Positions 1,835 through 2,895 of a DNA stretch of 64,000 nucleotides are shown in pieces (the stretch's first letter is position 1; the number at the start of each line of letters is the position of its first letter). The notes beneath the pieces were generated by a model, which worked only from the letters and a program-made list of their open reading frames with translations, was not told the DNA's origin and ran no database searches. A program made the translations under genes and the position numbers. The DNA is from Candidatus Anderseniibacteriota bacterium. GTDB lineage: Bacteria > Patescibacteriota > JAUYIX01. The stretch lies in NCBI GenBank assembly GCA_046350855.1, contig JAXLZM010000001.1, forward strand, positions 217,420 to 281,419. Reading direction: 5' to 3'.

Positions 1835-2895
1835 CTAATCAAGCCAAGCAGCATTTTTGAGCTTCTCGCTTAGCTTGTGCGAGTTGGCGTGTGAGAGTAC
1901 CCCTAAATACGATTGGACCGACTGATCGAGTGTTTCTCGAGAGATTTTTCCTTGTCGGTAGCGTGATTGCTGGTAGGCAAGTTTTTTAAATATTCGTTGC
2001 TTAGTCCGTGTCCGCACCCGGCGATAGTGCGGCAAGAGCACATACCCTAAAAAATCAATTCCCTGGCTGAACTTCCGAATAGTCACTTTATGGGGATGCA
2101 ACTGAAGGTGCAGTCGTTCAACCAAAAATTGTTGAATAGGCATAATCAGTCCTTGTAGATAGGACTCGCTGTCGGAGATAACCACAAAATCGTCGGTATA
2201 GCGTAGGTAGTGCTTAACGTGTAGCTGCTCTTTTATAAAGTGATCGAGCTCGTTGAGATAGACGTTAGCAAAAAGCTGTGAGGTGAGATTGCCGATTGGC
2301 AATCCAGTTGGTCGCACCCGTTGGTGTGTGTGTGTGTGTGTGTGTGTGTGTGTGTGGTGAAGCTATCAATCAACAGTTGCAAAAGCCGTCGCGTGCGATC
2401 GTCTTTTACTTTTTTGTCGAGCAGAGACCGTAAGATCTGATGATTAATAGAGGCAAAAAACTTTTTAATATCGCACTTAAGCACAAAGCACGGTCGAGTA
2501 TAGTTGCGACTCACGCGCCGCAAAATTCCCTCGAGCGCCAAAACCCCGCGGTGCGTCCCCTTACCTACTCGACAACTAAACGATCCCCAGTAAAAACTGG
2601 GTTCAAAGAGTGGGTTAAGCACTGCAAACACAGCGTGGTGGACGATCCGATCCCGCACCGTGGCCTTATGGATCGCGCGTGGTTTAGGATCTCGCAAGGC
2701 AAACGAATAGTACGGTCCATGGCGGTAACGACCCGAGCGTAACTCTCGATGTAGTTTAAAAAGCTCGGGTTCAAGCTGCCACTCAAAGCGCTGCACGTCT
2801 ACCTTACTCAATTTGCCACTTTTAAACTCATCCCAAGCCGCAAAAAGATTCTCGAGCGAAGTGATGCGTAAAAATACGTCTTCTGCTAGCCTCAT
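1835..2895 (-). CDS. diversity-generating retroelement reverse transcriptase, reading frame interrupted by an internal (TG)16 tract
   Basis: N-terminal ORF 2895->2233 gives MRLAEDVFLRITSLENL...RAIHKATVRDRIVHHAV...CFVLKCDIKKFFASINHQIL...RRLLQLLIDSFTT(HT)n, covering RT motifs 1-3. C-terminal ORF 2317->1835 gives RPTGLPIGNLTSQLFANVYLNELDHF...YLRYTDDFVV...GIDFLGY, covering motifs 4-7 and the thumb. Motif 4 'IGNLTSQ' is the DGR-RT hallmark and closely resembles Bordetella phage bRT (GIPIGSLTSQLFANVY). The two halves are in different frames on either side of the repeat. Confidence 0.85.
2325..2356. repeat. (TG)16 dinucleotide microsatellite inside the RT coding sequence
   Basis: Perfect tgtg... 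run, 32 bp, read directly. It is translated as (HT)n in the upstream RT frame. Deleting one TG unit, or adding two, would fuse the N- and C-terminal RT ORFs. Confidence 0.95.

Follow-up and report, generated by a model that had tools for sequence, protein, structure and literature searches.

A dinucleotide repeat as a candidate slipped-strand switch in the reverse transcriptase gene of a diversity-generating retroelement from a Patescibacteria genome

Can a diversity-generating retroelement (DGR) be turned on and off by a simple repeat lying inside its own reverse transcriptase (RT) gene? The question is posed by a DGR in a 64,000-nucleotide stretch of DNA (hereafter the window) from an NCBI metagenome-assembled genome (MAG) of Candidatus Andersenbacteria, on a contig of 291,925 nt, in which the RT gene is spread over two reading frames with a perfect TG tract between them. 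The initial annotation of the window proposed that the tract is a phase-variable on/off switch for hypermutation and named a dead RT or an assembly artefact as the alternatives. Our analysis indicates that the tract is probably a slipped-strand contingency locus built into the DGR RT, as judged from sequence comparison; the idea of a slipped-strand switch is supported by the recurrence of tracts in the same loop of related RTs, the occurrence of in-frame (ON) and out-of-frame (OFF) alleles, the restoration of split genes by a change of one unit, unit-number polymorphism, and the scarcity of comparable tracts elsewhere.

Tandem Repeats Finder returned GT x16.5 with 100% matches at 2324-2356, in agreement with the perfect TG x16 originally recorded at 2325-2356. 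The tract is the only dinucleotide run of more than 4 units within the 64 kb window, and a (GT)10 pattern gave 0 matches across 100 dinucleotide-preserving shuffles. The assignment of RT motifs 1-3 and 4-7 to separate frames was likewise confirmed (open reading frames [ORFs] 2895->2233 and 2317->1835), the frames of the two ORFs being offset by 2 nt. Rebuilding the RT with 12, 15 or 18 units produced a single ORF of 350, 352 or 354 aa, and any other count in the range of 12 to 20 units produced 208-222 aa; the predicted fusion upon loss of one unit or gain of two was therefore reproduced, 15 and 18 units both being full length. Because the repeat unit is 2 nt, the unit number steps through all three frames, in each of which the tract reads as (Thr-His)n. 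The gene thus carries a long perfect repeat, with a unit that is not a multiple of 3, within the RT ORF, and the uninterrupted RT ORF expected of a DGR is absent from the assembled sequence, where it is split at the tract. The frame of the C-terminal ORF is already open from 2362, and the N-terminal ORF runs through 30 out-of-frame codons past the tract before a stop. Both RT halves keep every motif and show no further lesion, and Pfam RVT_1 (E 2e-21) covers the fusion junction, extending over residues 71-285 of the fused protein. The high-GC setting originally ascribed to the tract did not hold, local GC content being just 51-53%.

The loop between motifs 3 and 4 appears able to accommodate such an insert. 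Among solved structures, the fused RT is matched best by the bRT-like 8ub7_A (E 8e-49), in which SFTTHTHTHTHTHQRVR aligns to a 15-residue gap, as anticipated when the tract was described as a net insertion relative to bRT. The closest homologues share 56-61% identity, are mostly 349 aa long, and have a variable 7-16 aa loop at the tract position, so that the 15-unit form exceeds them by only ~6 aa. Modelled with AlphaFold, the 15-unit RT had a predicted local distance difference test score (pLDDT) of 84.7 and a predicted template modelling score (pTM) of 0.82, with pLDDT <50 only at residues 182-192 (the TH repeat) and 1-3; since low confidence was confined to these residues, the in-frame tract looks in the model like a tolerated flexible loop. 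The tract position corresponds to an insertion of group II intron RTs that we take to be RT3a.

When the repeat-free C-terminal RT half was used as the search query, 120 mostly C-terminal RT fragments from bacteria that belong to the candidate phyla radiation (CPR; Patescibacteria) were returned. Approximately 40 of the 120 start, a few residues before motif 4, with HTHTHT, LSLSLS or the (GA)n-encoded RERERE, and many carry a non-homologous, out-of-frame N-terminus. Each of the split RTs L002-L006, listed in Table 1, was restored by a change of one unit. Short interrupted loop remnants such as RERV(K/N) were also observed in the in-frame RTs P0200, P0204 and P0235; judged from their sequence, these may be decayed tracts locked ON.

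To survey such genes without regard to frame, metagenome contigs were scanned with a DNA pattern consisting of (GA)7, a gap of 3-33 nt and the codons for PIGNLT. The scan recovered at least 111 distinct RT genes (clusters of at least 90% identity), sampled from groundwater, peat, lake and sludge, all with a tract in the same loop, which is the kind of occurrence in related genomes for which the initial annotation had proposed to look. Among the matches listed, to which the remaining counts of this paragraph also refer, motifs 3 and 4 could be placed in 81, of which 14 were in frame and 67 out of frame, i.e. ~18% and 82%; random unit numbers would be expected to leave 67% out of frame, and the deficit from the expected one-third in frame was significant (p = 0.001). 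The two out-of-frame offsets were about equally represented (35-36 vs 31-32), and a separate tblastn test classified 18 as in frame, 81 as out of frame and 21 as not assessable. The out-of-frame genes had the appearance of otherwise intact genes: YxDD was retained in 64 of 67, with both halves open at normal lengths; a one-unit change produced an ORF of 329-394 aa with YxDD in 34 of the ~40 that had enough flanking sequence; and 24 of 36 out-of-frame loci of at least 4 kb contained a template repeat (TR) and variable repeat (VR) pair in which adenines accounted for 80% or more, often 100%, of the 10-25 mismatches. Tract lengths were alike in in-frame and out-of-frame alleles (15-51 nt). ON and OFF alleles with otherwise intact ORFs therefore occur among relatives in this RT family, the window gene itself having been seen OFF only. 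As a separate observation, two of the RT loops hold a composite (CT)n(GA)n inverted-repeat microsatellite (L150, ~50-126, GA part 31 nt; L185, ~1450-1499, 27 nt), and the downstream flanks of these two loci are ~90% identical.

Unit number differed between contigs that were otherwise nearly identical. The loci L161 and L006, from sister samples, aligned over 5392 nt with 0 mismatches and one 2-nt gap, which lies in the tract (12 vs 13 GA units), and over 1906 nt L099 (out of frame, 15 nt) was separated by 13 substitutions and a single 4-nt gap from L194 (in frame, 19 nt). Unit-number polymorphism was thus seen at homologous loci; at the window locus, the independent contig L001, described below, breaks within the tract. 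In such near-identical pairs the tract is, as far as the assembled contigs record, the fastest-changing site. Dinucleotide repeats were over-represented at the locus relative to the genome, the 648 kb of retrieved loci holding just one other run of at least 7 units outside the RT loop. That lone run is an intergenic (GA)16 (L181, 920-951) on contig Ga0187882_1000754, which carries two pattern matches. A genome-wide microsatellite tendency was considered and rejected, long dinucleotide runs being nearly absent elsewhere in the 648 kb. In a neighbor-joining tree of 143 RT cores, built with no support values and hence indicative only, 71 tract-bearing RTs were scattered in a manner corresponding to ~21 gains or losses; the window RT is placed amid RTs that lack a tract, and a long distance separates the two (CA)n RTs.

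A second census, of the best 80 matches from species-representative genomes (439 kb), was biased toward intact RTs and contained 15 dinucleotide runs of at least 5 units, 12 of them in or beside RT or avd, the gene of the DGR accessory protein. Six of the 15 were in the RT loop, all in frame, as would be expected of a selection that favors intact RTs. A further 4 (L067, L076, L077 and L078; Table 1) were between avd and the RT or at the 5' end of avd, a placement which suggests that a repeat could gate a DGR from a second position. One run was at the extreme RT 3' end (L037, 3549-3570, (GA)11) and one between the avd 3' end and TR-like sequence (L081, 1068-1093, (GA)13); the remaining 3 were short and located elsewhere.

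If the tract is a slipped-strand switch, replication slippage would change its unit number at a high rate, with one frame yielding a full-length RT that carries a (Thr-His)n loop and the other two a 208-222 aa fragment without motif 4 and the YTDD catalytic site. In a population, a minority of ON cells would then diversify the target gene while the majority would be OFF cells with a frozen VR. The OFF state may be favored, as it would lock in a useful variant and spare the cost of continued mutagenesis, and selection of this kind would explain why ~82% rather than the expected 67% of alleles are OFF. Frequent, reversible switching within populations and the freezing of the VR in the OFF state are what we infer from the comparisons above. 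Modestly favored, in our view, is the wider proposal that many CPR bacteria gate their DGRs by a dinucleotide microsatellite in the RT (in some lineages, avd), such that hypermutation is phase-variable and confined to a slipping minority of ON cells in a mostly OFF population, and that such tracts have been repeatedly gained or lost at the same loop and overlooked since surveys keep only intact RTs.

Several observations weigh against a slipped-strand switch or against its operation at the window locus. The excess of OFF alleles could instead reflect slippage at the RNA level through which OFF alleles are still expressed, a leaky expression in place of a heritable switch. TR adenines account for 26 of the mismatches in the 132-nt TR/VR core of the window and other bases for 2, and these 2 non-adenine mismatches could mean a period without retrohoming. 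A DNA pattern spanning the window tract with a variable gap had 0 matches in genome and metagenome contigs, so that switching at this locus would be inferred from its homologues. Finally, indels in the nearby genes infC and rplT mean that the true number behind the assembled 16 units could be 15, 17 or 18. Exact-protein look-ups of the N-terminal half, the C-terminal half and L35 likewise returned no encoding contig, the two halves being present only as singleton NCBI entries.

In the assembly around the tract, the infC gene (window 649-1270) occupies three frames, being broken at GG 774-775 (where GGG is needed) and A6 934-939 (where A7 is needed), and rplT (window 1480-1834) occupies two, being broken at A4 1624-1627 (where A5 is needed). 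These three frameshifts lie 0.7-1.6 kb from the tract, and 2 of the 3 adjoin GATC. As infC and rplT are essential and cannot really be broken, the consensus must carry 1-nt homopolymer deletions here, and with such errors nearby the state of the window locus, 16 units and OFF according to the assembly, is uncertain. The three breaks point to a clustering of consensus indel errors at the infC/rplT end; elsewhere, long intact ORFs cover the window. Window-wide frameshift errors were considered and rejected, the suspect overlaps (superoxide dismutase/AhpC, EF-P/nucleotidyl transferase and others) proving to be separate intact genes; confirmed frameshifts were limited to infC and rplT.

An independent Logan contig (L001, SRR26348421) matched window positions 2332-3806 over 1475 nt with 2 substitutions and no gap. 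It begins within the tract and stops at the VR edge, with 25 tract bases at one end and a VR adenine site at the other. At VR position 3802, a TR-adenine site, L001 (position 1471) has the TR-like base and the window has T (coding strand). The contig ends and the difference at 3802 are compatible, as a hint from the assembled bases, with a sample of origin in which the VR and the tract were both heterogeneous; position 3802 and the VR end of L001 may likewise hint at ongoing mutagenic retrohoming. The 25 tract bases of L001 are also what a co-existing 12-unit, in-frame allele would give in a k=31 graph; this was not used as evidence. Of the alternatives named at the outset, both the dead RT and the assembly artefact are weakened by the pattern among homologues, though each keeps some probability for the window locus.

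Three other explanations of the split gene were weighed against the slipped-strand switch. The first, which we regard as unlikely, is recoding, in which slippage of RNA polymerase or of the ribosome along the tract lets every allele yield a small, roughly constant fraction of full-length RT, making the tract a throttle rather than a switch. Recoding would accommodate the intact halves and TR/VR pairs kept by the 82% of assembled alleles that are out of frame, and a dinucleotide repeat, being identical in all frames, would preserve perfect pairing upon a 2-nt realignment. The near equality of the two offsets, however, argues against a single directional ribosomal frameshift; a conserved stimulatory element was not seen, in-frame alleles with equally long tracts exist, and unit changes do occur at the DNA level. 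Transcriptional slippage is established for homopolymer runs, but we know of no case involving dinucleotide tracts, which also counts against recoding. Programmed or single directional ribosomal frameshifting was rejected as such, given that homologues show no fixed frame relation and that both offsets as well as in-frame alleles occur.

An assembly or sequencing miscount, under which the RT of the organism would be intact, at 15 or 18 units, and its split a consensus error, is in our estimation improbable. The three 1-nt homopolymer deletions within 1.6 kb of the tract are of an error type that also affects repeats, and the 16 units had no confirmation from a second assembly in the collections searched. 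Against a miscount, L001 aligns without a gap over its 1475 nt from inside the tract, long intact ORFs cover the remainder of the window, and out of frame is the commonest state in homologues assembled independently by several projects. Even if true, a miscount would alter the current state only, and the tract would stay a hypermutable switch. Neutral decay, in which a loop that tolerates any insert suffered a chance microsatellite expansion and a frameshift that killed the RT of a DGR now being lost, draws on the variable loop length and sequence of homologues, the 2 non-adenine TR/VR mismatches and the 4 of ~40 out-of-frame homologues not restorable by one unit, but is very unlikely given that the window RT halves keep all motifs with no other lesion, that 34 of ~40 out-of-frame homologues are restored by one unit and 64 of 67 keep YxDD, that TR/VR mismatches are adenine-only in most, and that the tracts are perfect rather than degraded and recur in RT and avd while being nearly absent elsewhere.

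The remainder of the element is in keeping with a slipped-strand switch acting on an otherwise complete DGR. The window holds a target gene with VR, a TR, avd and the RT (Table 1), the sole defect being the RT frameshift at the tract. The Avd protein scored 84.5 bits against NF033474 ("diversity-generating retroelement protein Avd"), for which the curated cut-off is 80, and the 285-aa target protein had no match in Pfam or NCBIfam. The target gene has as its neighbor, on the opposite strand, a gene for a DUF5674 protein at window 4812-5210 (Pfam E 2.5e-34). An Rfam scan of window positions 1-6000 returned nothing but a chance, sub-threshold mir-308 match.

Table 1. Features of the DGR in the window and dinucleotide tracts at homologous loci
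Feature	Source	Position	Strand	Remarks
Perfect dinucleotide tract	Window	2324..2356	-	(GT)16G on + strand, (CA)16 on coding strand; proposed slippage switch
RT as whole gene	Window	2895->1835	-	Two ORFs, split at tract
RT N-terminal ORF, 220 aa	Window	2233..2895	-	Motifs 1-3 including KCDIKKFF; NCBI: hypothetical protein MFO0704577.1
RT C-terminal ORF, 160 aa from GTG 2317	Window	1835..2317	-	GLPIGNLTSQ motif 4, catalytic YTDD, thumb; NCBI: separate protein MFO0704576.1
avd accessory gene, 128 aa	Window	2899..3285	+	Divergent from RT; NCBIfam NF033474, Pfam bAvd
Template repeat (TR), 132 nt	Window	3296..3427	-	80% identity to VR
Variable repeat (VR), 132 nt	Window	3778..3909	-	3' end of target gene; ends at target stop codon
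DGR target gene, 285 aa	Window	3776..4633	-	MFO0704579.1, locus tag U0517_01210
RT tract (AG)10	L002, GCA_012974965.1			Split; in frame at 9 or 12 units
RT tract (CA)9	L003, Logan SRR22388014			Split; in frame at 7 or 10 units
RT tract (GA)13	L004, L005, L006; NCBI, ENA and JGI assemblies			Split; in frame at 11 or 14 units
Tract (CT)10	L067	849-868		Divergent avd-RT intergenic/first avd codons
Tract (GT)13	L076	2449-2474		Divergent avd-RT intergenic/first avd codons
Tract (GT)9	L077	2451-2468		Divergent avd-RT intergenic/first avd codons
Tract (CT)6	L078	2465-2476		Divergent avd-RT intergenic/first avd codons

The window element resembles the DGR of Bordetella phage BPP-1 in its RT motif 4 of the [IL]GxxxSQ type (here PIGNLTSQ), its four-helix Avd accessory protein, and its pairing of a TR with a VR located at the target gene's 3' end, the two repeats differing specifically at adenines. 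It differs in that BPP-1 bRT is a single uninterrupted ORF with a minimal loop (PD-EGVG) at the position of the tract, and we know of no repeat-based control of bRT. The divergent orientation of avd and RT is that of most CPR DGRs (architecture B3 in a DGR survey, PMC5758913).

The tract has its closest known counterparts in the simple sequence repeat (SSR) contingency loci of Haemophilus, Neisseria, Campylobacter and Helicobacter, with which it shares a long perfect non-triplet repeat in a coding region, frame shifts upon unit changes, ON and OFF alleles of otherwise intact genes among close relatives, and a location in non-essential, environment-facing genes. A (TA)n tract also lies between the divergent hifA and hifB promoters, an arrangement resembled by the avd-RT intergenic tracts of L067 and L076-L078. 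Classical SSR loci, in contrast, switch surface structures or restriction-modification enzymes, whereas the enzyme here is a targeted mutator in uncultured CPR hosts. Reversible mutator switches are known in the form of tandem repeats in mutL of Salmonella and of prophage excision at mutS-mutL in Streptococcus pyogenes, and these are similar in that a heritable, reversible switch toggles a mutation-generating state in a subpopulation; the mutL and mutS switches act on genome-wide mismatch repair, however, while the proposed switch would act on the site-specific, adenine-directed diversification of one target gene. Contingency loci are also reported in the genomes of coliphages T2 and T4 (preprint, bioRxiv 10.1101/2025.10.21.683753), where polymerase-slippage tracts likewise serve bet-hedging beyond the classical pathogens; a DGR RT is not their subject.

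Simple-repeat phase variation and DGRs are each known, and their combination, in which a repeat switch gates a DGR, appears to be a new variant: in the literature searched, neither repeat tracts nor phase variation were described for a DGR RT, with a mention in Paul et al. 2017 (Nature Microbiology) possible, and the initial annotation likewise knew of no such switching in DGRs. The survey cited above (PMC5758913) compiled "putatively functional" DGRs only, which would exclude elements with a split RT. Because ~80% of tract-bearing DGRs are out of frame in assemblies, surveys of intact RTs would miss most of them, and recognition of the tracts would change how DGRs are counted. One hypermutable site would control another hypermutation system. 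The idea also offers a principle by which engineered DGR mutagenesis could be designed to switch on and off stochastically. How natural hosts control their DGRs is poorly understood; if the slipped-strand reading is true, a repeat switch would provide CPR bacteria with a simple, heritable and reversible form of DGR control, by which a few cells diversify the target gene and a successful variant is then frozen.
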